DNA of 64,000 nucleotides from an uncultured Actinomycetes bacterium. GTDB lineage: Bacteria > Actinomycetota > UBA4738 > HRBIN12. A program made the translations under genes and the position numbers. The notes under the pieces were generated by a model, which was given only the letters and a program-made list of their open reading frames with translations, had not been told where the DNA came from and made no database searches. The stretch covers positions 277,703-341,702 of the forward strand of contig CAWFNS010000002.1 of the NCBI GenBank assembly GCA_963817235.1. The letters are read 5' to 3'. This document shows positions 10,356 to 45,045 of the stretch, piece after piece; positions within the stretch are counted from its first letter, which is position 1, and each line of letters opens with the position of its first letter.

Positions 10356-11248
10356 GCGTGCCCGCCCTGCCGCCGCAGATCCGCGAGCGCACGGTCGCGA
10401 AGGCGCGCACGCTGCTCGAGGCGCTGCCGTTCATGCGGGCGCACCAGGGCAAGGCGATCGTCGTGAAGTACGGCGGCGCCGCGATGGACTCGGTCGGCCT
10501 GGCGGCGTCGTTCGCGCAGGACGTCGGGCTGCTCCAGTCGGTCGGCATCCGGCCGGTGATCGTGCACGGCGGCGGGCCCGCGGTGACGAAGATGTCCGCG
10601 CGGCTGGGGATCGAGACGACGTTCGTCGACGGGCTCCGCGTCACGGACGCCGAGACGCTCGACGTGGCCACGATGGTGCTGGCCGGCAAGCTCAACACCG
10701 AGGTGGTGGGCTCGCTCGTGGCCGGCGGCGTCGACGCGGTCGGCCTCTCGGGCGTGGACGGACGGCTCCTGCTCGCCCGGAAGTCCGAGGGCCCGGACCT
10801 CGGCTTCGTCGGCGAGGTCGTGCACGTCGACGCGCACGTCCTGTCGACGTTGCTGGCCGAGCGGTTCGTGCCGGTCGTCGCGTCGATCGCGCTGGACGAG
10901 GTCGGCCAGGCGTACAACGTGAACGCCGACGTCGTCGCGAGCGAGCTGGCGATGGCGATCGGCGCCGAGAAGCTCGTCTACCTGAACGACGTCCCGGGTG
11001 TGGTCGGCCCGAACGGCGAGCTGTTGTCGGAGCTCTCGGCGCGGCAGTGCCTCGAGCTGCTTGCGGCCGACGGCGTCGTCGACGGCGGCATGATCCCGAA
11101 GCTCGAGAGCGCGGCGCGGGCGCTCGCGGCGGGCGTCGACCGCGTCCACCTCGTCGACGGACGCGTCGAGCACTCGCTGGTGCTCGAGCTGTTCACGCCG
11201 GAGGGCGTCGGCACGATGATCACGCCGGACGCGGGAGCGCCCTCGTGA
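10352..11248 (+). CDS. argB: acetylglutamate kinase
   Basis: The GTG overlaps the argJ stop. AIVVKYGGAAM, PVIVHGGGP, GFVGEV, NVNADVVASELA, GGMIPKLE. Confidence 0.9.
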   Translation: MSVPALPPQIRERTVAKARTLLEALPFMRAHQGKAIVVKYGGAAMDSVGLAASFAQDVGLLQSVGIRPVIVHGGGPAVTKMSARLGIETTFVDGLRVTDAETLDVATMVLAGKLNTEVVGSLVAGGVDAVGLSGVDGRLLLARKSEGPDLGFVGEVVHVDAHVLSTLLAERFVPVVASIALDEVGQAYNVNADVVASELAMAIGAEKLVYLNDVPGVVGPNGELLSELSARQCLELLAADGVVDGGMIPKLESAARALAAGVDRVHLVDGRVEHSLVLELFTPEGVGTMITPDAGAPS

Positions 11249-12417
11249 TCGACGAGCCCGCCGTGATGCCCACGTACGCGCGGTACCCGGTGACGCTCGT
11301 GCGCGGCGAGGGCCTGCGGGTCTGGGACGACGCCGGCCGCTCCTACCTCGACCTGATCGGCGGGCTGGGCGCGTTGTCGCTCGGGCACTGCCACCCGGTG
11401 TGGGTCGAGGCCGTGGAGCGGGCCGCGCGGACGATCGGCATGACCTCGAACCTCGTGGCGACCGTCCCGCAGGCCGACCTCGCGGACCGGCTCGCGGCGC
11501 TCGTGCCGATCGAGGACGCGCGCGTGTTCTTCTGCAACTCCGGGGCGGAGGCGAACGAGGCGCTGCTGAAGCTGGTCCGCAAGCACGGGCTGCGCGCAGG
11601 ACGTCCGGCGATCGTCGTCCTCGACGGCTCGTTCCACGGCCGGACGATGGCGACCCTCGCGGCCACCGGCCAGCCGGCGAAGCGCGCGCCGTTCGAACCG
11701 CTCGTGGACTGGTTCCGGTTCGTGCCGCCCGGCGACCTGGCGGCGCTCGACGAGGCGCTCGCGCCCGGCGACGTCGGCGCCGTGTTCCTGGAGCCGGTCC
11801 TCGGCGAGGGCGGGGTGGTCCCGCTCAGCACCGGCTACCTGCGCGGCGTCCGCGATCGATGCGACGCGGCCGGCGCGCTGCTGGCGGTGGACGAGGTCCA
11901 GGCCGGCGCCGGCCGCGTCGGCGAGTGGCTGAGCATCTCGCTGGCGGGCGTCCGGCCGGATGTCGCGTCGCTGGCGAAGGCGCTCGGCGGCGGCCTGCCG
12001 ATCGGCGCCCTCGTCGCGCGGGCCGATCTCTCGTTCGAGCCGGGCGAGCACGCCTCGACGTTCGGCGGCGGGCCGGTGCCGTGCGCGGCCGCGCTCAGCG
12101 TGCTCGACGTGATCGAGCGCGACGGTCTCCTCGCGGAGGTGCGGACGATGGGCGCGCTCCTGCGCCGCGAGGTCGAGCGGCTGGCGCCGGCGGGATCGCT
12201 CCGCGAGATCCGCGGCCGCGGCCTGCTGATCGGGTTCGAGGTCGCCGAGGGTCTCGACGCGACGACCGTCGTCCACGGGCTGCGCGAGCGCGGTGTGCTG
12301 GCGTCCACGGCCGGGCCCGGCGTCGTCCGGTTCACGCCGCCGTTCACGATCGACGCCGGCGAGGTCGACGTGGCGGCCAAGGCGATGGCCGAGGCGCTCG
12401 CGGAGGCGGCGGCATGA
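11245..12417 (+). CDS. argD: acetylornithine aminotransferase
   Basis: The GTG overlaps the argB stop. CNSGAEANEAALKL-type motif (FFCNSGAEANEALLKL), DEVQAGAGRVG, SLAKALGGGLPIGA (PLP lysine), TFGGGP. Confidence 0.9.
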   Translation: MIDEPAVMPTYARYPVTLVRGEGLRVWDDAGRSYLDLIGGLGALSLGHCHPVWVEAVERAARTIGMTSNLVATVPQADLADRLAALVPIEDARVFFCNSGAEANEALLKLVRKHGLRAGRPAIVVLDGSFHGRTMATLAATGQPAKRAPFEPLVDWFRFVPPGDLAALDEALAPGDVGAVFLEPVLGEGGVVPLSTGYLRGVRDRCDAAGALLAVDEVQAGAGRVGEWLSISLAGVRPDVASLAKALGGGLPIGALVARADLSFEPGEHASTFGGGPVPCAAALSVLDVIERDGLLAEVRTMGALLRREVERLAPAGSLREIRGRGLLIGFEVAEGLDATTVVHGLRERGVLASTAGPGVVRFTPPFTIDAGEVDVAAKAMAEALAEAAA

Positions 12418-18517: not shown

Positions 18518-19026
18518 ACGAGGGAGCACCGATCGAGGAGGGCCCCGGCGAGCTCTCGGAGCGCGAGCGCCGCGATATCGCCGCGGACCTCCAGGACCTC
18601 GCGAAGATGTTCGGCGTGTTCGCCCCCCAGGGGGTCAAGGGGGTCGTGATCGCCTGCCAGGACTGCGGCGAGAACCATTTCTACGAGTGGGACCTCCTGC
18701 GCGAGAACCTCGAGCACATGCTCGACACCGGCGAGCCGCGGATGCACGAGCCGGCGTGGAACATCCACGAGGACGAGTACATCCAGTGGGACTACGGCAA
18801 GGGCTACATCGACGCGCTCGCGGACGCCGGCCTGGAGGCCGACCGCACCATCGAGATCACGACCTGCCCGTGGTGCGCGACGCCGTTCGACGACGCCTCC
18901 CGGTTCTGCCCGCGATGCGGCCGGCAGCTGGGCGCGATCCGCCTGTACCGCGAGCTGCTCGACCGCGGCGTCGAGGAGCGCGAGGCCAGGGCGATGCTCG
19001 TCCGCGCCGGCTACGACCCGTTCTGA
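18514..19026 (+). CDS. conserved hypothetical protein with C-terminal CxxC...CxxC zinc-ribbon
   Basis: The ATG overlaps the deacetylase stop (ATGA). ACQDCGENHFYEW and TTCPWCATPFDDASRFCPRCG motifs. Function unknown. Confidence 0.6.
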   Translation: MNEGAPIEEGPGELSERERRDIAADLQDLAKMFGVFAPQGVKGVVIACQDCGENHFYEWDLLRENLEHMLDTGEPRMHEPAWNIHEDEYIQWDYGKGYIDALADAGLEADRTIEITTCPWCATPFDDASRFCPRCGRQLGAIRLYRELLDRGVEEREARAMLVRAGYDPF

Positions 19027-19039
19027 GCGCGGCCGGGCG

Positions 19040-19045
19040 TATCCT
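19040..19045 (+). promoter_or_regulatory. candidate -10 hexamer (TATCCT) of a leaderless transcript
   Basis: 8 nt upstream of ATG 19054, with no SD. Confidence 0.35.
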
Positions 19046-19053
19046 GTCGCGCC

Positions 19054-19531
19054 ATGTACTACCAGTGGATCCTCCTCCTGCACATCCTGTCGGTGCTCGC
19101 GCTGCTGGGCACCCATGGGACGTCGATGGTCGTCCTGTACCGGATCCGCGCCGAACGCGACCGGCGGAAGATCGTCGACCTGATCAGCCTGTCGGGTGAG
19201 ACCTCGATCCCGATGTACGTCTCCATCGGCGCGATCGTCGCTGACCGGGATCCTGCTGGGCCTGAAGCTGACGGTGTTCTCGAACTGGTGGATCTGGGTC
19301 GCGATCGGGATCTTGGCGGTGATGATCGCGCTGATGACCGCGATCGCGAAGCCGTACTTCCGCCGGGTGAAGGAAGCGTGCGAGGTCCGGCCCTCCGGCG
19401 TGCCGCGCGTCTCCGACGAGGAGCTCGGCCAGATCCTGCGGTCCTCGCGCGCGCACGTGATCACGGCGATCGGCGTGATCGGGCTGGTGGCGATCCTCTA
19501 CCTGATGGTGTTCCAGCCCGGCGCGGCCTGA
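19054..19531 (+). CDS. small integral membrane protein, one frame hop as assembled
   Basis: MYYQWILLLHILSVLALLG... (frame 0) continues as ..LTGILLGLKLTVFSNWWIWVAIGILAVMIALM...VIGLVAILYLMVF (frame 1, switch near 19240). About four predicted helices. Confidence 0.5.
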
Positions 19532-19543
19532 CCGCGCCGGGAC

Positions 19544-20542
19544 TCACGCCGGCGGCAGCGGACGGGCGGCGGGCCCGTTCACGACCTCGCCGAGCCGTGA
19601 GAAGCGCGAGCCGTGGCACGGGCAGTCGAACGTCCGCTCGCCGGGGTTCCACGCGACCGTGCACCCGAGGTGCGTGCATCGCGCCGACAGGAGGTGCTGC
19701 TCGCCGCCCTCGTCCACGAACACCGCGAGCTTCTCCCCGCGCCGCTCGATCACCCCGCCCTCGCCGGGCGCGAGCTCCGAGGCGATCTGCACGACGGTGC
19801 GGCACAGCAGGACGTCGCGGTCGGCCCCTTCCACGACCGTCTCGGGGACCGAGCCGAGCAGGTAGCCCTTCGCACCCTGGAGGCCCTTGTTGCCCACGAC
19901 GACGAGCTCCGCGTCGACTGCTTCGGCGGTCCGGAGGATCTCCTCGCGGGGGTCGCCCTGGAGCAGCCGGACGTCGGTCTCGATGCCGCGCCCGTACACG
20001 TCGATCGTGTCCTGCATCACCAGCTCGCCGGTCGCCGGATGCCCGACGAACACCAGCGTCACGGCGGCCAGGACCTCACGCGCGAGGTCGAACCCCTTCC
20101 GCGCGGCCCGGTCGGCGGTGGCGGAGCCGTCGCTCGCGATCAGGATCCGGCCGTACGGCGCGTGCGGGTCGCGGTTCCCGCCGGCGACGATCAACAGGTC
20201 GCAGGGGGTGTGTCGGACCATCCACCGCGTGAGGCCGGACAGCTGCTGGCCGGCGCCGCGCGCCACCACGACGAGGCCGGCGTCGCGCTCCTCGGCGAGG
20301 CTCACGAGCACGTCGCCCGCCCGCCCCGGCACGGCGACCGCCTCCATCTTCGCCCGGCGCATGCCCGCCGCCTCCGCCGCCGCGAGCGCGGCCTCGAGGT
20401 GATCGGGCGCGTCGGGCTCGGCCGCCGTGCCGCTCGTCGCGATCAGGCGCGCCGACGTGGCCCGGGCGATCTCGGCGGCGACCTCGCCGGCGCGCGTCGC
20501 CGCCGGCGATCCATCGGTTCCGAACACGATCCGTCCCCACAT
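19544..20542 (-). CDS. tandem universal stress protein (UspA) domains fused to a C-terminal Rieske [2Fe-2S] domain
   Basis: ATG at 20542. Two Usp-like halves (IVFGTDGS...LLIVAG; ILIASDGS...VVVGNKGLQG..LGSVPETV), then CTHLGC-x14-CPCHGS, the Rieske C-x-H...C-x-x-H ligand pattern. Confidence 0.75.
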   Translation of the reverse strand: MWGRIVFGTDGSPAATRAGEVAAEIARATSARLIATSGTAAEPDAPDHLEAALAAAEAAGMRRAKMEAVAVPGRAGDVLVSLAEERDAGLVVVARGAGQQLSGLTRWMVRHTPCDLLIVAGGNRDPHAPYGRILIASDGSATADRAARKGFDLAREVLAAVTLVFVGHPATGELVMQDTIDVYGRGIETDVRLLQGDPREEILRTAEAVDAELVVVGNKGLQGAKGYLLGSVPETVVEGADRDVLLCRTVVQIASELAPGEGGVIERRGEKLAVFVDEGGEQHLLSARCTHLGCTVAWNPGERTFDCPCHGSRFSRLGEVVNGPAARPLPPA

Positions 20543-29258: not shown

Positions 29259-29453
29259 GGAACGTCCCCCTCTCGCTGATCGACCGGCCCGGGCGAGCCG
29301 ACCGGGCAAGTCTCGGGCTCCGAAGCACTGCATACGCAAGCGCGCTGCACATCGGCTCGCTCGCCCCGGGAACGCCCTCGATGCCTGTCGGTGGTTCTCG
29401 GTAGACTGGCGTTCCCGCAGGCAGACGGCCTGCAACCCGGGGGGGTTCCGATC

Positions 29454-30337
29454 ATGCCGAGAGCAATGTGGAAGGGCGCCATCTCCTTCGGCTTGGTGAC
29501 GATCCCGGTCGCGGTGTATCCGGCCACCGAGGAGAAGTCGCTCAGGTTCAACCAGTTGCACGACGCCGACGGCGGCCGCATCCGCTACAAGCGCGTCTGC
29601 GAGAAGGACGGCGAGGAGGTCGGCTTCGAGCACATCGTGAAGGGCTACGAGGTCGAGAAGGACCGCTACGTGATCCTCACGGACGACGACTTCGACGCCA
29701 TACCGGTCGAGTCCAGCCGGGCGATCGACATCCAGCAGTTCGTCGATCTGGACCAGATCGATCCGGTGATGTTCAAGAAGAGCTACTACCTGGTGCCCGA
29801 GGAGACCGGCGCGAAGGCGTACTCCCTCCTCCGCGAGGCGATGTCGGAGGACGGCCGCGTCGGCATCGCGAAGGTCAGCTTCCGCGACCGCGAGCACCTC
29901 GCGGCGCTCCGCTTCAAGGACGACGCGTTCGTGCTGGAGACGATGTACTGGCCCGACGAGATCCGCGAGGCGGACTTCGGCGGCGTCGACGTCGACGCGA
30001 AGGTACGCGGCCAGGAGCTCGAGATGGCGCGGCAGCTCATCGACTCCCTCTCGTCGGCGTGGAACCCGGCCGAGTACGCGGATGAGTACCGGGAGGGATT
30101 GCTCAAGATCGTCGAGGCGAAGCTGAACGGCCAGGAGATCGAGGTCGTCGAGCCGGAGCCCACCGCGAAGGTCGTCGACCTGATGGAGGCGTTGAAGGCG
30201 AGCGTCGCCGCCGCGAAGAAGGGATCGGAGCCCGCGCCGAAGAAGCCGGCGGCCCGGAAGACGGCGGCGAAGAAGACGGCGGCGAAGAAGCCCGCCGCGA
30301 AGAAGCCCGCGGCGCGCAAGAAGGCCGTCGGGGAGTA

Positions 30338-30338
<1 letters not shown>
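29454..30338 (+). CDS. ku: Ku protein (NHEJ DNA end-binding) with lysine/alanine-rich C-terminal tail
   Basis: MPRAMWKGAISFGLVTIPVAVYPAT, YKRVC, KSYYLVP, and the tail PAPKKPAARKTAAKKTAAKKPAAKKPAARKK. Intact. Confidence 0.9.
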
Positions 30339-37117: not shown

Positions 37118-39249
37118 AGGCCCGCATCTGCATCGCTTGTCGTCGTCTTCGCGATGGTCCTCACCGCCTGCACGGGGAAGTCCTCATCCACCGGAACGAG
37201 CCCGCCACCGACCAGCGCGTCGCCGTCGACCGCGGGCGGCGTGCCAGCCTCGCTCTTCGGGTTCGGAACGCTTCCGGCCGTGCCGCTGCTCGGCGACACC
37301 CCCGCGTACGCCGGGCCGGCCACGCCGCACAGCCTGACCGCCGTCCGGATCCCGCGGTCACTGCTGCCGCAGCTGACGCCGGCGGTCCGTCGACGACTCA
37401 TGCGGAGTGGGTTCGCGATCGTGCCGAGCGACATGAAGCTGATGTACGACGCGTACACGGAGGCGCCGTACGGCAACTACCCGGTCTTCGTCACGACCGA
37501 CGTCGCGTACCACCAATGGCACCTCACGTTCGACAAGCTCCTGCGGAGCATCGAGCAGCAGGTGTTGCTGCCGAAGCTTGAGGAGCTGACCCGCGGGGCG
37601 TTGACCGGAGCGCAGCAACAGGCCGCGGATCTGCGCGGCACGCCGCTCGCGGCCGAGGCCGCCCGTGTGGTGCAGCTGTACCAGGTCGAGGCGACGTTGT
37701 TGGGGCTCCCGGCCGGAACCCTCGGTCCACAAGCACGGCAGGAGCTTGGCCTTGATACAAGGCGCACAGCCACGATCGCCCAGTCGCCGATCCTCGGCTT
37801 CGGTGGCACCCCCGGCGGGAGCTGCGCGGCGGAGGCCCCGCCGCCCGCGGGCTGCATCGACTACTCGCTCTACACGCCGCGCGGTCACTACACGACGACG
37901 GCGGCGCTGACCCGGTACTTCCTCGGGATGTCGCTGCTCGGGCAGTCCGCGTTCCGTGCGAACGACTCGGATCATCCGTCCGTTCGCGATGGGCGTGCTG
38001 GCCTCACGCGTGATCGTGCCGACCGGCATCGGGAACGCGACGCTCGCCGGGCTCTGGCGTGACCTCTACGAGCCCACCGCGTTCCTCGTGGGCGCGGCCG
38101 ACGACTACACGCCGTTCGAGACGGCGAAGGCCGTCGACGCGACCGTGCCCGGCGCGATGCGGACGCCGCAGCAGCTCACGGCTCAAGAGCTGCGCGCCGC
38201 ACGTGCCGCCCTGCTCGCCGCGCGGAGCGTCATGATCGACCCGGAATCGGCCTCGATCAGGTTGATGGGCACCCGTTTCGTGATCGATGCCTTCATCCTG
38301 GACCAGCTGGTCGACCCGAACGTGACTCGACCGCCTCATGCCGTCGGGCATGGACCTGGCCGCATCGTTCGGCTCGCGCTTCGCCTATCAGGTGCAGCGG
38401 AAGGCCGGTGCGACCGCGTATCCGAACTACGGCACGCAGATGACGAAGATGCGGGCCCTCGTCGCCAACCGGCCGCAGGCCGCGTGGGGGCGGACCGTCT
38501 ACGACGGGTGGCTCTGGTCGATCGAGCCCTCCTGGCGACCGCACGGCGCGGCGTTCCCCGACTTCATGCGGACGCCGGCCTGGACCGTGAAGTCCCACCA
38601 GACCGGGCTCGCTTCCTGGGCGGAGCTGCGCCACGACACGATCCTGTACGTGAAGCAGTCGGCCGCCGAAGGGGCGGGTCCCTTCCCGGACCTCTCGTAC
38701 CGGAGCTGGGTCGAGCCCGACCCGGTCGTGTACGAGCGGCTCTCGGCGGTGACGGGGCTGATGCTGACCGGCCTCGACGCACGGCACCTGCTGACCGGCG
38801 AGCAGCGAGGACTGCTCACCGACACGAAGGAGCTGATGGACTTCTTCGCGCGGATCGCGAAGGACGAGCTCGCCGGGACGCCGATCGCCAAGGCGGACAA
38901 CCAGCGGTTGGCGTTCATCGGGGACGCGCTGGAGGCACTGTGGTTCCGGTCCTCCGATCACCCGACGGCCAACGTGCCGTCGGCGACCGATGACGACGCG
39001 GTGATCGCCGACGTCGCCCGCGGCGGCGACGAGGCCCTCGAGGTCGGCACCGGCCGGTTCGACCGGATCTTCGTCCTCGTCCCGGACAACCGTGGGACGT
39101 TCGAGATCGCGGTCGGCGGCGTCTACTCGTACTACGAGTTCGGGCAGCCGGTGTCCAACCGTCTCACGGACGACGCGTGGCGAGCGATGCTGAACACGCA
39201 CACGGCGCCCGCCCGCCCGTCATGGGAGGCGCCGATCCTGGCCGGGTGA
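37114..39249 (+). CDS. DUF3160-like lipoprotein, three frame hops as assembled
   Basis: The ATG overlaps the CapA stop (ATGA). Signal MKARICIA/VVVFAMVLTAC is split by a hop at about 37135. YTPRGHYT, WAELRHDTILYVKQS, YSYYEF. Frames run f0,f1,f2,f0. The family name is recalled from motifs, not searched. Confidence 0.55.
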
Positions 39250-39257
39250 TCGACGAG

Positions 39258-39284
39258 GCGGGTGGGAGCGATCATCCCACCCGC
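39258..39284. terminator. bidirectional GC-rich hairpin
   Basis: GCGGGTGGGA-gcgatca-TCCCACCCGC: perfect 10-bp stem, followed by TT on the plus strand. It lies 9 nt after the DUF3160 stop and 1 nt from the stop of the orphan DUF72 3' fragment on the other strand. Confidence 0.55.
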
Positions 39285-39285
39285 T

Positions 39286-39357
39286 TCAGAGCATCGCCTC
39301 GAGGCGCGCCGCCATCTGCGGCGACGCGCCCTCGTCCTCGTGCTTGAAGTGAAGATC
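39286..39357 (-). pseudogene. orphan 3' fragment of a DUF72 gene (..FKHEDEGASPQMAARLEAML*)
   Basis: The minus-strand frame gives DLHFKHEDEGASPQMAARLEAML-stop. Homology to the DUF72 gene at 43.7 kb begins at the 17-bp repeat. There is no upstream coding partner. Confidence 0.7.
39334..39350. repeat. left copy of 17-bp perfect direct repeat GTCCTCGTGCTTGAAGT
   Basis: Identical 17-mer at 43705-43721. The flanking bases differ on both sides. Confidence 0.85.
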
Positions 39358-39602
39358 ATTGGGGCCGGAATGAGAGCTTCGGTGTCGCGCTAGATCGCTC
39401 TTGGTCGTCGAAGCGGATCGTCGCCTCCTGTTCACGGGCGGGTATCGACGACCGGCCAACGTTGTACTCGCCGTGGCGCCGTAAGGGAACAGGTACTACT
39501 GGCGTCGCGGTCTGGTTGCGGCACCCGAACCCAGACAAAGCCAACGCGGTCGGAGTTCACGTCCGGGAGAAGTTGATCGCTTGGGCTCAGACCTCGCACT
39601 CC

Positions 39603-40142
39603 TTACCCGCCGTTCGTTGGGGGAGTCCCGCCCCCGAGGCCGACGTCGCCTTCGGTGATCGTCGTCGCGTCGACGGTGCTTCCGTTCTTCGACCCGCCGA
39701 CCACGATCGTATCGCCGTTCGCGAGGTCGCTGATCGAGCCGTCCTTGCTGACCCGGATCTGCGTGTCGTTGCCGACCTTGACGTTCACGGTGTCGCCGCT
39801 CTGCGTTCGCACGGTGATCGTGTTCCCGTTCACCGACTCGATCGTGCCGAACGTGATGTTGCCGCCGTTCGCGAACCCGCCGCCCGGGCCTCCGCTGGGG
39901 AACGACCCGCCGTTCGGGAACCCGCCGCCGTTGCGGAAGCCCGGGAACCCCGACGCCTGCGTGGAGCTATTCATCGAGCGGCCGACCAGGATCCCGGCGA
40001 GAACGCCGACGGCCACCAGCACCACGGCGACGAGCGCCAACGTGACCGGCGACCGCTTCGTGCGCTCTCGTCGTGCCAGGAGTTCGTTGAGGTCGTCCCC
40101 CGCGGGCGGCGGAGGCGGTTGCTGCTGCGTGCTCTGACCCAT
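39603..40142 (-). CDS. small membrane-anchored Gly-rich protein with C-terminal beta-barrel-like domain (DUF5666-like)
   Basis: ATG 40142 with AAGGAGG 8 nt upstream. TM VTLALVAVVLVAVGVLAGILV, GFPGFRNGGGFPNGGSFPSGGPGGGFANGG, then GTIESVNGNTITVRTQSGDTVNVKVGNDTQI. The family label is tentative. Confidence 0.55.
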   Translation of the reverse strand: MGQSTQQQPPPPPAGDDLNELLARRERTKRSPVTLALVAVVLVAVGVLAGILVGRSMNSSTQASGFPGFRNGGGFPNGGSFPSGGPGGGFANGGNITFGTIESVNGNTITVRTQSGDTVNVKVGNDTQIRVSKDGSISDLANGDTIVVGGSKNGSTVDATTITEGDVGLGGGTPPTNGG

Positions 40143-40162
40143 CTCGTGTTCCTCCTTGTCTC

Positions 40163-41392
40163 TCATTCGTAACGGAGCGCCTCGACCGGACGGAGCGAGG
40201 CCGCGCGGTTCGACGGGATAGCTGCCGAAGAACAGACCGATCACGACCGCGACCGCCAGGGCGAGCACGATCGAGCTCGGCACGATCACGGGTTGCACGC
40301 CCGCGATGGTGAAGCGGCTGCCAATCACGGCGGCCGCGACGCCGAGCAGCCCTCCGGCGGCCGACAGGATCGTGGCCTCCGCGAGGAACTGGCCGAGGAT
40401 CGCGCCCCGGCGGGCGCCGACAGCCTTGCGGATCCGATCTCGCGGGTCCGCTCGGTCACGGTCACGAGCATGATGTTCGTGATGCCGATCCCGCCGACCA
40501 GCAGGCTGATCGCCGGCTACGGCGCCCAGCAGCACCGTGAAGGTCCGCGTCGTGTCCTGGCTGGTCGACAGGAGCTGCGTCTGATTCAAGACCTGGTACG
40601 GGGCGATCGGATGCGTTCGAGACGTCGAACGACCGGTCGAGGATCGCGGTGACCTCGCTCTGGGCCGCGTCCACGGTGTCGGCGCTCGTGGCCTCGACCA
40701 CGATCTGCGAGAGCGCACCGTACCCGCTCACGCTCTGCTGGACCGTCGTGAGCGGGGCGATCACGACCGAGTTCGCGTCCTGGAACCCGGTGCTCCCCTT
40801 GTCCTGGAGCACGCCGACGACCGTGAACAGGGTGCCGTCGATCGGTGATCTGCTTGCCGATCGCGCTCTCGCCCGAGAAGAACAGGACTGTCGGCCACGG
40901 TCGTGCCGATCACGGCGACCTTGCGGGCATCGAGTACGTCGTCGTTGGTGTAGTAGCGCCCCTCTGAGGATCGGGCTGTTCGTCGCTTCGAAGTAGCTGG
41001 GATAGCGTCCCGACCACCTGGACGGAGAGCACTCTCGCCCACCGTTCGTCGCGGTGGCCTGCGCTGTGATCTCCGGCGTCACGCTCTTGACGTCGGGTGC
41101 CCCGTTCTGGTCGGCGAGCGACGCGGCGACCGCCACGGTCAGCGACGTGTCCCGGCTCTGCGTCGTCGTCGATGCTGGCCGCGCCGAACCGCCCCGGAGA
41201 AGATCGTCAGGGAATTCGTGCCCGAGCCGTTCGATATTGGCCTCGATCTGCTTGGCGGACCCGTTGCCCACTGCGACGAGCAGGATCACGGCGCCGACGC
41301 CGATCAGCACCCCGAGGGTGGTGAGTCCCGAGCGGAGGGGGTTCGCGCGAAGACCATGGACGCGACGAGCGGAGCAGGTCGCGCAGGTTCAT
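40163..41392 (-). CDS. MacB/FtsX-type ABC transporter permease, heavily frame-disrupted as assembled
   Basis: MNLRDLLR.., [93 protein letters not shown] pieces lie in all three phases. The ATG overlaps the ATPase stop (ATGA). Confidence 0.7.
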
Positions 41393-42115
41393 CGACGCCC
41401 GCACCGACCGCGGTCGTGACTCCTCGATGACCTCGCCGTCGCCGGAGCCGGATCACGCGATCGGCGTGGCGCGGCGACGTCGTCCTCGTGGGTGACCAGG
41501 ATGACCGTGTTCCCCTGCTGCGTGGAGCTCGTCGAAGGACCGCCATCACCTCGGAGCTCGACATGGCTGTCGAGGTTGCCGGTGGGCTCGTCGGCGAGCA
41601 GGAGCGAAGGGGCCGGTCGACGATGGCGCGCGCGATCGGCGACCCGCTGCTGCTGCCCGCCCGAGAGCTGGTCGGGCGTGTGGTCCATCGCGGTCGCGCG
41701 AGGCCGACGAGCGCGAGCATCGCCTGCGCGCGCCGGCGTCGCTCGGCGCGCCGGGACCCCGCGCGTACACGAGCGGCAGCTCGACGTTCTCGAGCGCGGT
41801 CGTGCGCGGGCAGGAGGTTGAACGCCTGGAAGACGAAGCCGATGCTGGCGGTTGCGCACGATCGCCAGCTCGCTCTCGTCGAGATCGCCGACGTCGATGC
41901 CGTCGAGCAGGTAGCGGCCGGAGGTCGGCGACGTCGAGGCAGCCGATGATGTGCATCAGGGTCGACTTGCCCGAGCCCGACGCTCCCATGATCGCGACGT
42001 ACTCTCCGGCCTGGATCACCAAGCTCACGTCGCGGAGAGCTCGCACGACCGTTTCGCCCTCGCCGTACACCTTCGAGACGCGATCGATCGCGATGACGGG
42101 AACCGTGTCGTTCAT
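41389..42115 (-). CDS. MacB-type ABC transporter ATP-binding protein, heavily frame-disrupted as assembled
   Basis: Walker [62 protein letters not shown] pieces alternate between phases. Several hops are pairs of nearby single-base insertions. Confidence 0.75.
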
Positions 42116-43400
42116 CCGCGAGCGCCCCCCGGGCCACCGCCGCTGATCCCGAAGCCGCCGCCTCCCGGGAACCCGCCTCCCGGGAACCCGTTGGAGCCGG
42201 TCGAGCTCGGGATCACGACCTGCTCACCCTCCGACAGGCCGCTCACGATCTGCGTGGTCTGGTCGCCCTCGACGCCGACGGTGACGGCCACCTGAGTCTG
42301 TTGCCCGTTCGGCTCGACGGTGACGACCTGTTGCCCGGCGCTCGTCTGCACCGCCGCAGACGGCACATAGAGCGCGTCGGCGGCGCGATCGACCACCACC
42401 TGCACGGTCGCCGTCTGCCCGGCACGGAGCCCGGAGACCTGCCCTTCAGCTGGACCTCCACGCCGTACTCGACGACGTTGTTGTCCGTAGTCGAGGTGGG
42501 GTCGATCCACCGCACCACCCCGGGGGCCGACGTCCCGAGGGCGTCGAAGGTCACGGTGGCCTGTTGCCCGACCTTCAGCTTCGCCGCATCCGTCTCGGAG
42601 AAGTTCGCCGAAACCTGCAGGTCCTTCAGCTTGCTGATCACCACGAAGCCGGAGGTCCCCGAGGTGGTGGCGCTACCGGAGGACCCGGACCCCGCGGCCT
42701 GGCCCACGCTGCCGTTGACCTCGACGACCGTCCCGCCGATCGGTGCACGCAGGGTCGTGTCGGAGAGGGTCTCCTGCGCCTGCGCCACCTGCGCGTGTGC
42801 GGAGGTGACCTGGGCCTCCGCCTGGGTGACCTGTCCATCGGCCGATGTGACCGAGGCCTGCGACTGCGCCACCTGGGATCTCGCCGACGCGACCTTCGCC
42901 TCCGCGTCCGCGATCTGCTGGCCCGTCGCCGTGCCCGACGACTTGAGGGCTTGGAGGTCCATCTGCGCAGCGTTCAGGTTCGCCTGTGCGGAAACCAACC
43001 CGGACCGGGCGGCGGTCACCCCGGCGAGCGCGGACGTGACGCTGGCGCTGGCCGAGGTCGCGCTCGCCTCGGCGGTCTGCAGGTCGGCCTGCGCGCTGGT
43101 GGGATCCAGCTGCGCCAGGACCTGGCCCTTGTGGACCACGTCGCCCACGTCGACGGAGATCGACGCCACGGTGCCGGACGAAGCGAAGCTGACGTCCGAC
43201 GTGGTGGTGCTCTCAGTCGTCCCCGATGCCGAGACCGTCGCCTCGACCGTCCCACGTTGAACGGTCGACGTTGAGCCGGCGGCCCTGGCCTCTCCCGGGC
43301 TCCGCAGGAGGAAGTAGGCGGCGGAGGCCGCGACCACCAAGACGACCACCAGGACGATGTTGAGCGTGCCGAACCGTCGGAAAAGCCTCGGTCGTTCCAT
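42112..43400 (-). CDS. HlyD/MacA-family efflux periplasmic adaptor, frame hop near 42445
   Basis: N-terminal [19 protein letters not shown] lipoyl-like hairpin, a long Ala/Gln coiled coil, [13 protein letters not shown], and a C-terminal Gly-rich tail [14 protein letters not shown]. The stop overlaps the ATPase start (ATGA). Confidence 0.8.
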
Positions 43401-43532
43401 GCCACCGAGGCTTGCTCAGGAAGCTTGGGCCAGGCTTGGGCGAACCTGGAAGGTTGCTGAGTCTTTCCGGGTGTCCTAGGAAGCGATTCTGATCTTCGCG
43501 TCGGCTACCTAATCTGTACTCTGACCAGGTAT

Positions 43533-43703
43533 TTAGAGCATACGTTCGAGGCGCGCCGCCATCTGCGGCGACGCGCCCTCGTCTTCGTGTTTGAAGTAGC
43601 AGAACACGCTCGCGCCAGCGTCCAGAGCCGGCCTGATGCGACCCGCCCACGTCGCGAGTTCGTCGTCAGCGTACTCGGTCTTGCGCAACCGCAGGTAGCC
43701 GAC
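43533..43703 (-). pseudogene. second, diverged copy of the last 56 codons of DUF72 (VGYLRLRKTEYADDEL...FKHEDEGASPQMAARLERML*)
   Basis: 171 nt = 57 codons including TAA. By hand alignment, about 88% identical and without indels to 43705-43827 (15/123 mismatches). About 89% identical (7/65 mismatches) to fragment 39286-39350. It is out of frame with the gene body only because of the single base 43704. Confidence 0.7.
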
Positions 43704-44379
43704 GGTCCTCGTGCTTGAAGTAGCAGTACACGCTCGCGCCGGCGTCGAGCGCCGGCCGGATCCTGCCCGCCCACGTCGCGAGCTCCTCGTCGGTGTACTC
43801 GGTCTTGCGCAGCCGCAGGTAGCCGACCGGCTCCCACGACAGGTCCTCGGGTCGCGGATCCTTCTCGTCGGTCTCCGCGACGCACCACGCGACGCCGCGC
43901 GCCAGGAGCGTGTCGCGCGCCTCGGCCCACGACGCGTGCCGGAACTCCATCGCGTAGGCCGCGGTGGTCTCCGGCAGGGTGTCGAGGAACGACGTGAGCA
44001 GCTCCGCGTCGTATGCCAGCGTCGGCGGGCACTGGAAGAGCACGCATCCGAGCTTGTCGCCGAGCAGCGCGCCGCGCGTCATGAAGTCGCGCACGTCCTC
44101 GCCGACGTCCTTCAGCTTCTTCCAGTGCGTGATCCGCTGGTTCGCCTTCAGCGTGAACACGAACCCGGGCCGCGCGCGCTCGCGCCAGTTCGTCAGCGTC
44201 TTCTCGGTGGGGAAGCGGCGGAACGTGTAGTTGATCTCCACCGACGACAGCTTCGAGGAGTAGTAGTCGAGCATGTCGTCCTTCTTCAGGTCCTCGGGGT
44301 AGAAGACGCCGTGGCGCCACTCGTCGTAGGCGAACCCTGACGTCCCGAGGTAGAAGCCGCCGCCCATGGCTTGGCCCAT
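43666..44379 (-). CDS. DUF72 domain-containing protein (C-terminus replaced by a 12-aa out-of-frame tail as assembled)
   Basis: GFYLGTSGFAYDEWRHGVFYP, SVEINYTFRRFP, FVFTLKANQRITH, VLFQCPP, MEFRH, YCYFKHED. The ORF then reads RRLPAVAQDRVR* into copy B. Start is at ATG 44379 or 44367 (duplicated). The ORF track extends to GTG 44397. Confidence 0.75.
   Translation of the reverse strand: MGQAMGGGFYLGTSGFAYDEWRHGVFYPEDLKKDDMLDYYSSKLSSVEINYTFRRFPTEKTLTNWRERARPGFVFTLKANQRITHWKKLKDVGEDVRDFMTRGALLGDKLGCVLFQCPPTLAYDAELLTSFLDTLPETTAAYAMEFRHASWAEARDTLLARGVAWCVAETDEKDPRPEDLSWEPVGYLRLRKTEYTDEELATWAGRIRPALDAGASVYCYFKHEDRRLPAVAQDRVR
43705..43721. repeat. right copy of 17-bp perfect direct repeat GTCCTCGTGCTTGAAGT
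   Basis: Identical to 39334-39350. On the minus strand it encodes ..FKHED, the last normal residues of the DUF72 body. Confidence 0.85.
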
Positions 44380-44385
44380 GGCTTG
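44362..44385. repeat. 2 x 12-bp perfect tandem duplication (GCCCATGGCTTG) spanning the DUF72 start codon
   Basis: Units at 44362-44373 and 44374-44385. On the minus strand it gives ..QAMGQAMG.. with two in-frame ATGs. Confidence 0.85.
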
Positions 44386-44387
44386 GG

Positions 44388-45045
44388 ATGATGGCACGCA
44401 TGGAACGCTTCGAGGTGACGACGCCGAAGGGTCCCGTGTCGGCCGCGTGGCATCCCGCGGACGGTCCCGCCATCGTCGTCGGCCACGGGGCCGGCGCCGG
44501 GATGGACCATCCGTTCCTCGTCGGGTTCGCGGAAGCCGTTGCGGCCGAGGGGGTCTCCGCGCTGCGCTTCAACTTCCCGTACATGGAGGCAGGCCGGAAG
44601 AGCCCCGACGCGCCCGCCAACGCGATCGCGGCGTTCCGGGCGGCGTTCGACGCGGCCTCGGCGCGCGCCGCCGGCCGGCCGGTGTTCGGCGGCGGCAAGA
44701 GCTACGGCGGTCGGATCGCGTCGATGGCCGCCGCCGACGGCATGCCGGCCGCCGGCCTGGTGTTCCTCGGGTATCCGCTGCATGCGCCGGGCAAGCCCAC
44801 CCAGGTCCGCGACGCGCACCTGCTGGACCTCGCAGATCCCGATGCTCTTCCTCCAGGGCACGAAGGACCCCTTCGCCGATCCGACGGTCCTGGCCGCGAC
44901 GCTGCGCAAGCTCGGCGACCGCGCGACGTACGTGCCGTTCGAGGGCGCCGGGCACTCGCTCGAACGCTCACGGAAGGACGATGCGCGCGCCGCCGGCGCC
45001 TCGGCCGCCCCGTACGCGGCGGCGTTCATCAAGGAGCACGGCTGA
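44388..45045 (+). CDS. alpha/beta hydrolase (KANL3/Tex30-like, dienelactone-hydrolase fold), one frame hop as assembled
   Basis: VVGHGAGAGMDHPF, GGKSYGGR (GxSxG). After a +1 hop near 44835: IPMLFLQGTKDPF, FEGAGHS. Start is one of ATG 44388/44391/44400. Confidence 0.7.

Follow-up and report, generated by a model that had tools for sequence, protein, structure and literature searches.

The locus described here raises the question of how a MacB-type efflux operon came to lie at the 3′ end of a gene of the DUF72 (YecE) family, between two perfect copies of a 17-mer and with no mobility gene of its own. The operon is located in a stretch of 64,000 nt with 72% GC (hereafter, the window), which belongs to a 614-kb contig from the genome of an uncultured member of the Actinomycetota, and an earlier note on this DNA had interpreted the segment 39351–43704 as a discrete insertion bounded by a 17-bp target duplication. 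For comparison, 91 loci were fetched, and 80 species representatives were employed in a survey of the wider clade. The operon is probably the cargo of a decayed, integrase-less island, similar to the cis-mobilizable elements (CIMEs) of other bacteria, at a hot spot of the attachment-site (attB) type formed by the DUF72 3′ end. What had looked like a striking insertion, with a perfect repeat and no mobility gene, would then consist of mostly ordinary parts: an old island flanked by attachment (att) sites, a string of conserved codons and a junction perhaps due to an error of assembly.

The DUF72 gene end occurs in three overlapping copies

The DUF72 gene body (copy A) occupies 43705–44397 on the minus strand (Pfam PF01904, E = 9e-56). 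Its open reading frame (ORF) is read from 44397 down to 43705, where it ends ..YCYFKHED and continues out of frame (RRLPAVAQDRVR*) into a second copy of the gene end, so that the right-hand 17-mer does mark the point at which the C-terminus is lost, as the earlier note had said. The copy A protein equals protein P0130 up to FKHED.

Copy B (43703–43533), which follows a single C at 43704, comprises the last 56 DUF72 codons (VGYLRL..FKHEDEGASPQMAARLERML*) and is the diverged copy that had been recognized at the cargo end. It is 88% identical to copy A over its first 123 nt, ungapped and at a spacing of 124 nt. By sequence comparison, its upstream part together with the junction base (43581–43704, minus strand; VGYLRL..FKHED) carries the B allele. 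Its downstream part (43533–43597, minus strand) is made up of the core, with 2 mismatches, and an island-borne replacement tail (EGASPQMAARLERML*), and forms an attL-like direct repeat of 66 nt and 89% identity with 39285–39350. At the far end of the operon lies copy C (39286–39350, minus strand), an attR-like unit of core, including the left 17-mer (39334–39350), and displaced original DUF72 tail (EGASPQMAARLEAML). This orphan fragment (..FKHEDEGASPQMAARLEAML, read from 39350 to 39286) adjoins a perfect hairpin with a 10-bp stem at 39258–39284, read directly from the sequence, 3′ of the DUF3160 stop codon. Both the orphan and the hairpin are thus where they had been reported, and copies A and C, when joined, do give a normal DUF72 C-terminus followed by its terminator.

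The 17-mer itself (GTCCTCGTGCTTGAAGT) is exact at 39334–39350 and 43705–43721, against a chance expectation of 0.03, and a third copy with 2 mismatches is present at 43581–43597. The exact string is the consensus coding sequence for (Y)FKHED and was found in 42 of the 91 loci, in the DUF72 gene or its orphan, and twice in each of L082 and L086. The perfect pair is evidently the conserved FKHED core rather than a target-site duplication, its identity being due to coding conservation, a point missed in the earlier note, and the 17-bp "target duplication" follows from the overlap of three DUF72 ends. As had been noted before, the segment contains no recombinase or transposase detectable with Pfam, and the repeat analysis revealed no terminal inverted repeats at 39351 or 43704.

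Relatives share the operon and its left end

The operon recurs at this position in three loci, each of which also shares the 252-nt arm and has orphan copy C on the hairpin. L086, a 258-kb contig, is 97.2% identical to the window in the right flank and 95.8% in the left flank and cassette; L082, a 164-kb contig, is 94% identical in the left flank and cassette, while its right flank reaches only 74–82%; and L087 is a stand-alone contig of 4,405 nt that corresponds to window 39248–43705, with copy B identical at 171 of 171 positions. In L086 and L082, DUF72 is a single-copy gene of the B type at its 3′ end, and copy A is absent. The L086 gene reads through tail B, and its orphan copy C sits on the old terminator, the flanking repeat of this island being about 51 nt with 1 mismatch (ACTTCAAGCACGAGGACGAGGGyGCGTCGCCGCAGATGGCGGCGCGCCTCG). 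Since the cassette and orphan C are common to L086, L082 and L087, the left junction and the cassette predate the window genome. The proposed insertion of 39351–43704 with a 17-bp target duplication is therefore not upheld, and neither is the right-hand 17-mer as its boundary: this copy (43705–43721) forms the final 17 nt of a partial gene end of 124 extra nt relative to L086 (43705–43827, minus strand; the last 41 in-gene codons, of the L001/L088-like A allele), which precedes copy B in tandem (43581–43703; spacing 124 nt, 88% identity) and occurs on the window contig only. What stands of that interpretation is a variable island in the DUF72 3′ end, with direct repeats derived from DUF72, a replacement end and a displaced end at the old terminator. 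Of the outcomes that the earlier note had listed as speaking against it, two apply in part, namely the presence of the cassette and its left end in relatives and the conservation of the 17-mer.

Other relatives carry different DNA in the same slot. Up to FKHED, the DUF72 protein of L088 does not differ from copy A, and in the right flank L001 shares about 95% identity with the window; in both relatives, DUF72 is intact and has a tail other than C, followed by a regulator with Zn-ribbon, guanylate-cyclase, AAA_16 and TPR parts, the hairpin and DUF3160. The slot is thus occupied alternatively by the cyclase regulator (L088, L001) or by the efflux operon (window, L086, L082), and L002 shows yet another arrangement. 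The hairpin beside DUF3160 is kept in L001, L086 and L082 whichever island is present. Among DUF72 proteins at least 90% identical to that of the window, the residues after FKHEDEGASPxMAxRL are hypervariable, and across the wider clade DUF72 and the conserved glnD block lie 1.7–9.5 kb apart. Almost every other locus has an intact DUF72, the exceptions being frameshifts in noisy assemblies, e.g., L082 and L086.

L082 is itself a hybrid. It shares about 94% identity with the window in the left flank; in the right flank, identity to L088 is only 76%, and L028 is the best match (83%). The cassette is close to that of L086, with 0 substitutions in the adaptor, DUF5666 and arm regions, and the switch falls inside the DUF72 tail (~6560–6600 in L082). 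Either recombination between species or chimeric assembly of the contig accounts for this.

A family of islands joins DUF72 at one nucleotide

Among the 80 species representatives, orphan DUF72 tails were found 1.7–8 kb downstream of an intact gene in eight (L010, L013, L016, L021, L022, L031, L052 and L059), and the same pattern was observed in a JGI metagenome contig (L090). Every orphan, copy C included, starts at the same point, ..AC followed by TTCAAGCAC.., and one to three cassettes are present in the slot of these distant relatives. Most orphans are preceded by a non-coding arm of about 150 nt that is at least 90% conserved, although the DUF72 genes of those genomes are only 75–80% identical. 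This arm carries GGCAACA twice and can be seen, for example, at 12270–12483 of L010 and 14660–14870 of L013, as well as in L016, L021, L022, L031 (two copies) and L089–L091. When folded as DNA and as RNA, it scored no better than shuffled sequence; a 26-mer taken from it gave 0 matches in viral contigs and matched three JGI metagenome contigs only, all of them cassette arrays without an integrase. A search of the window and three array-bearing loci against Rfam at the gathering threshold matched no family. Cargo carried elsewhere includes alpha/beta-hydrolase–cyclase fusions, a large cyclase regulator, a histidine kinase and an FtsX permease.

In the arrays of L031 and L022, the internal junctions carry a conserved element tail (..ILRSKA*), and the tail native to the lineage, EEDAAGPKMAKRL, is found on the last orphan of L031. 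Such an arrangement, P-O-P′ at internal and P-O-B′ at terminal junctions, is the one expected from tandem accretion. Just past the last orphan tail of the three-cassette array, L031 also encodes an IS256-like-looking transposase (18885–20108), and transposase families were present among the PHROG matches of the ORFs downstream of DUF72.

An integrase remnant was detected in L013, where a truncated tyrosine integrase gene (10842–11717) directly follows the DUF72 stop codon, beside attL. It keeps the SAM-like, central and N-terminal catalytic parts, while the C-terminal catalytic part is gone, a convergent histidine-kinase gene ending there. The 12-mer CTAGATAGTCCT occurs twice just upstream of it. 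Among the matches listed, this is the only integrase in the 91 loci, and no relatives of it were found in viral contigs.

Origin of the island

Given the anatomy of the gene end, the presence of the cassette in relatives, the different occupants of the slot, the shared position of the junctions and the remnant integrase of L013, we propose that within one clade of uncultured Actinomycetota from soil the 3′ end of DUF72 (the yecE family) serves as an attB-type hot spot for integration and recombination. An island integrating there would have supplied a new DUF72 3′ end, so that the core with tail B (43533–43597) would represent attL, and the original 3′ end, copy C (39286–39350), would represent attR, displaced by 4.2 kb and still on the old terminator hairpin. 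Such an integration would have been mediated by an integrase. The island would be old, having later moved between lineages mainly by homologous recombination in its flanks, and any site-specific step would require a tyrosine integrase supplied in trans.

Several observations weigh against this proposal. No circular or excised form of the island is known. The earlier note had expected the empty site, with DUF72 directly convergent with DUF3160, in related genomes; it was found in 0 of about 90 loci, another island being present in the nearest relatives that lack the cassette. In L001 and L088, the far end of the cyclase island is without an orphan tail, and the arm of the window lacks clear similarity to the conserved 150-nt arm. 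The same core adjoins five different types of arm, a diversity that one arm-binding integrase would fail to account for. An intact integrase was absent from the best 25 families per scan of the window ORFs, and no integrase at all was present among the best 25 of the 61 PHROG families matched by 144 representative ORFs downstream of DUF72 in the 80 species. Finally, the breakpoints seen among relatives are of the homologous type, lying within the tail in L082 and some 250 nt upstream of the core (about −253) in L086, and indicate that recent spread took place by homologous recombination and not by site-specific integration.

These breakpoints would also suit a history without any site-specific recombinase, in which the DUF72-to-glnD interval is hypervariable, its contents being swapped by homologous recombination between conserved flanks, and the DUF72-tail repeats are what is left of one or a few illegitimate events in the distant past (insertions or duplications), inherited and shuffled since then. 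The 1.7–9.5 kb of filler between DUF72 and glnD across species, the lack of an integrase in nearly all islands (among the matches listed) and an arm with neither significant structure nor an Rfam family would fit as well. We nevertheless regard homologous swapping alone as unlikely: at least five unrelated arm sequences join the gene at one nucleotide, the 150-nt arm outconserves the DUF72 coding sequence (at least 90% against ~75–80%) in the same genomes, the arrays show the pattern of tandem accretion, and the L013 remnant lies where an int gene would be expected, after the repeated 12-mer. A recent arrival of a discrete 4.35-kb element (39351–43704) in an intact A+C gene, with a 17-bp target duplication and mobilised in trans, is far less credible still. 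We know of no transposase that a 17-bp duplication would fit, terminal inverted repeats are lacking, the A-allele relatives L088 and L001 have a tail other than C, the 17-mer is a family consensus, and the presence of cassette, arm and orphan C without copy A in L086 and L082 places the attR junction before the window genome. The normal C-terminus and terminator obtained from A+C, and the ends of L087, which match the segment plus copy C, speak for such an event, and in one variant the element could have been a circle that arose by aberrant excision and carried 123 nt of donor DUF72, similar to the yecE fragments (100 bp, 87% identical) captured by Escherichia coli prophages (PMC8112680).

Established mobile elements were also considered. 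A transposon with target-site duplication was discarded, given that the segment lacks both terminal inverted repeats and a transposase and that relatives have the cassette but not the right junction. Integron gene cassettes were rejected because no integrase is present among the neighbours listed for L082, L086 and L088 and cassette orientations are mixed; arm, core and tail together, considered as an attC site, fold no better than shuffled sequence (z = −0.7). Insertion sequences, Tn7-like elements and Xer/dif systems were judged from anatomy only and set aside, terminal inverted repeats and a transposase being absent and the core not being palindromic by eye. It is improbable, to a degree between the two histories weighed above, that the DUF72 3′ end is a dedicated cassette-capture platform, on which single-gene or operon cassettes with signalling cyclases, kinases and efflux pumps as cargo are stacked via the conserved core and the ~150-nt arm, with the recombinase encoded outside the cassettes and possibly no classical neighbouring integrase. 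If true, such a platform would amount functionally to a new kind of integron-like system.

The proposed decayed island has counterparts among characterized systems, the nearest being CIMEs with their accretion and the yecE-targeting Stx prophages of E. coli. The ssrA-linked islands of Dehalococcoides form tandem series bounded by repeats of a gene 3′ end and have their own recombinase module; their target, unlike DUF72, is an RNA gene. CIMEs, whose definition, three-step origin and accretion have been described (PMC5704250), are integrase-less, as is the island of the window, with attL and attR derived from the 3′ end of the target gene, as in ICESt1/CIME of Streptococcus thermophilus, and in accretion, as also of Streptomyces pathogenicity islands, a new element enters a resident element's att site, which leads to tandem arrays. 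They differ from the island of the window in several respects: the latter is known from sequence alone, it targets a gene of the DUF72 family of uncultured Actinomycetota, one core is bordered by several arm types unrelated to each other, a single decayed integrase was present in the 91 loci (among the matches listed), and recent spread looks homologous.

The DUF72-family gene of E. coli is yecE (the JGI name is "YecE (DUF72 family)"), a well-used attB of Stx prophages whose occupancy varies between strains, and yecE fragments captured in other prophages act as secondary attB sites (PMC8112680). These captured fragments are an analogue of copy B, whereas the yecE-targeting lambdoid (Stx) prophages differ in being complete, with their own integrase and a 21-bp att site, and in having unrelated hosts. 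DUF72/yecE, a phage att site in E. coli, also appears to be a recurrent landing pad for integrase-less cassettes in uncultured soil Actinomycetota, and the locus offers a concrete place to study the decay, stacking and exchange of genomic islands in unculturable bacteria.

The junction between copies A and B

The right-hand junction, at which copy A runs into copy B, calls for a separate explanation. At informative sites, the A copy and about 130 nt upstream of it match the L001/L088 allele, while copy B matches the island-linked allele. The comparison of copy A with L088 over 693 nt gave 15 synonymous and 0 non-synonymous differences; between copy B and L086, 5 synonymous substitutions and the stop codon differ. 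This purely synonymous divergence implies that both copies were in working genes until very recently, and hence that the frame-breaking tandem is not old. The truncated DUF72 protein was found on one contig only in a collection of 15 billion proteins, and a search with the junction peptide returned no second instance, a weak negative because the candidate list was short and did not include the query's own protein. L087 starts exactly at the junction base, as predicted both by a real junction and by a single-copy hybrid gene.

A junction of diverged alleles with a partial duplication can be produced by homology-facilitated illegitimate recombination or, in assemblies, by haplotypic false duplication. 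Both processes fit the A/B junction, and the contig sequence alone cannot tell them apart; we consider it very recent, and due either to a genuine illegitimate joining of two alleles that circulate together or to a mis-assembly caused by strain collapse, with the two possibilities about evenly balanced. Under mis-assembly, to which we give slightly less than an even chance, two co-occurring strain alleles were set in tandem in a noisy contig of the metaFlye style, and the junction, the right-hand 17-mer and the truncated DUF72 are artefacts; allele A would be linked to the cyclase island and allele B to the efflux island, the true gene being a single hybrid or of the B type, as in L086. The approximately 50 one-base insertions in 14 kb relative to L086, many of them beside substitutions, favour an error of this kind, as do the garbled ATPase and permease region in three of the four assemblies of the cassette, the single contig with the truncated protein, the weak negative for the junction peptide, the synonymous divergence of both copies from functional alleles, the intact DUF72 in nearly all other loci and the circulation of both alleles in sibling samples. 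On the other side, L087 begins at the exact junction base, albeit where a single-copy hybrid gene would likewise place it, and we know of no assembler mechanism that gives an in-register 124-nt junction of two clean alleles. The window also encodes Ku and LigD-type proteins about 9 kb from the island (29280–30338, plus strand; ligase and primase–polymerase ORFs elsewhere), which would make end-joining available for a real event. A simple chimera of L086-like and L088-like strains was ruled out, since the window is about 2.5–3.7% divergent from both on either side.

The efflux operon and its arms

The Pfam analysis bore out the gene content that had been reported for the cargo, all of it on the minus strand. 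The tripartite MacB-type gene set, i.e., an ABC ATPase, a MacB_PCD/FtsX permease and an adaptor of the HlyD family, is complete in one operon by Pfam matches, although frameshifted in the window. Between the replacement tail and the first gene lies a non-coding leader of 132 nt and lower GC (43401–43532; 0.61–0.65), which may hold the promoter; a promoter and terminator scan gave nothing useful. The HlyD/YknX-type periplasmic adaptor gene (42112–43400; HlyD_3, HlyD_D23 and Biotin_lipoyl_2) is broken by a 1-nt deletion in a G run at ~42444, and its orthologues are intact (432 aa in L081, 429 aa in L086). The gene for the MacB-type ABC ATPase follows (41384–42115, the lower end being approximate), with ABC_tran matches in two frames and pieces in three, in whose ORF translations the Walker A, signature and Walker B motifs are visible; its L086 orthologue is intact (235 aa). 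The MacB_PCD and FtsX permease gene (40163–41387, both ends approximate; E = 3e-19 and E = 1e-7, respectively) is also frameshifted, its ORF running on into the next gene, and its intact orthologue in L086 encodes 404 aa. None of these frameshifts, nor the read-through, had been recognized in the earlier note. The last gene (39603–40142) encodes a small, Gly-rich, membrane-anchored protein with a weak match to DUF5666 (E = 5e-4; 20.7 bits, below the 27-bit cut-off), and its orthologues have 179 aa and 97–98% identity. The lower-GC, non-coding stretch that had been described beyond it is an arm of 252 nt (39351–39602, minus strand), on the side of the P arm, which shows 0 differences from L087 and about 3% from L086 and L082.

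The operon resembles MacAB-TolC and YknXYZ of Bacillus in its HlyD/YknX-type adaptor (Pfam Beta-barrel_YknX and YknX_C), ABC ATPase and MacB_PCD plus FtsX permease. Its ATPase and permease form two polypeptides, which agrees with YknYZ and differs from the fused MacB. Unlike both systems, it has a fourth gene, for the DUF5666 protein, and no outer-membrane factor; the operon contains no TolC-like exit duct gene, which is probably not applicable to this phylum.

As judged against intact orthologues, the frameshifts in the cassette are consensus errors of a noisy long-read metagenome assembly, since they are one-base indels that cluster where three assemblies disagree; decay of the cassette into pseudogenes was ruled out on the same grounds. 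L001 derives from a short-read metagenome-assembled genome and the window contig from an error-rich long-read metagenome assembly, and the contigs of the window's relatives bear names of the contig_N form. Relative to L001, one-base insertions are scattered through the coding DNA of the window. More than 20 of those counted relative to L086 lie inside 41362–41927, and their frequent position next to substitutions is what a mixed-strain consensus would give. Long-read metagenome contigs can imitate both pseudogenisation and insertion scars.

Within 40150–41930, which comprises the ATPase and permease genes, the four assemblies of the cassette (window, L087, L082 and L086) differ by 15–34% with dense indels, whereas in the adaptor, DUF5666 and arm regions they are 0–2% apart. 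The jump in divergence falls near the boundaries of the ABC genes, and open frames are kept in L086 only. Cross-mapping of paralogous ABC genes, with a noisy consensus as the result, may account for this divergence, as may a real swapping of alleles.

Frameshifts also extend along the contig beyond the cassette, with one-base insertions in the flanks relative to L001 at window positions 37972, 38327, 44834, 50151 and 51285. Those at 37972 and 38327 leave DUF3160 in three frames, and the one at 44834 fuses an Abhydrolase_11 (hydrolase) gene with the next ORF. At the start of DUF72, the window has a 12-nt insertion relative to L001 (44363–44386), so that its protein begins MGQAMGGG.. and that of L001 MGGG..; the L088 protein starts as in the window.

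The same four-gene operon was also observed, at 90–92% identity, in an unrelated context in another genome (L081, 1–340; L083, 855–1290). There, it is located about 340 nt downstream of an apparent tRNA gene 3′ end, with scraps of one degraded gene in between and a GGDEF gene after it. The homology with L081 begins only at 43462 of the window, and that with L083 stops at 39602, the end of the DUF5666 gene. As the shared sequence spans exactly 39602–43462, the 70 nt beside tail B (43463–43532, within the leader) and the 252-nt arm, which is absent from L083, are specific to the island at the DUF72 site. The tRNA/GGDEF setting looks like a second, independent island context for the operon.

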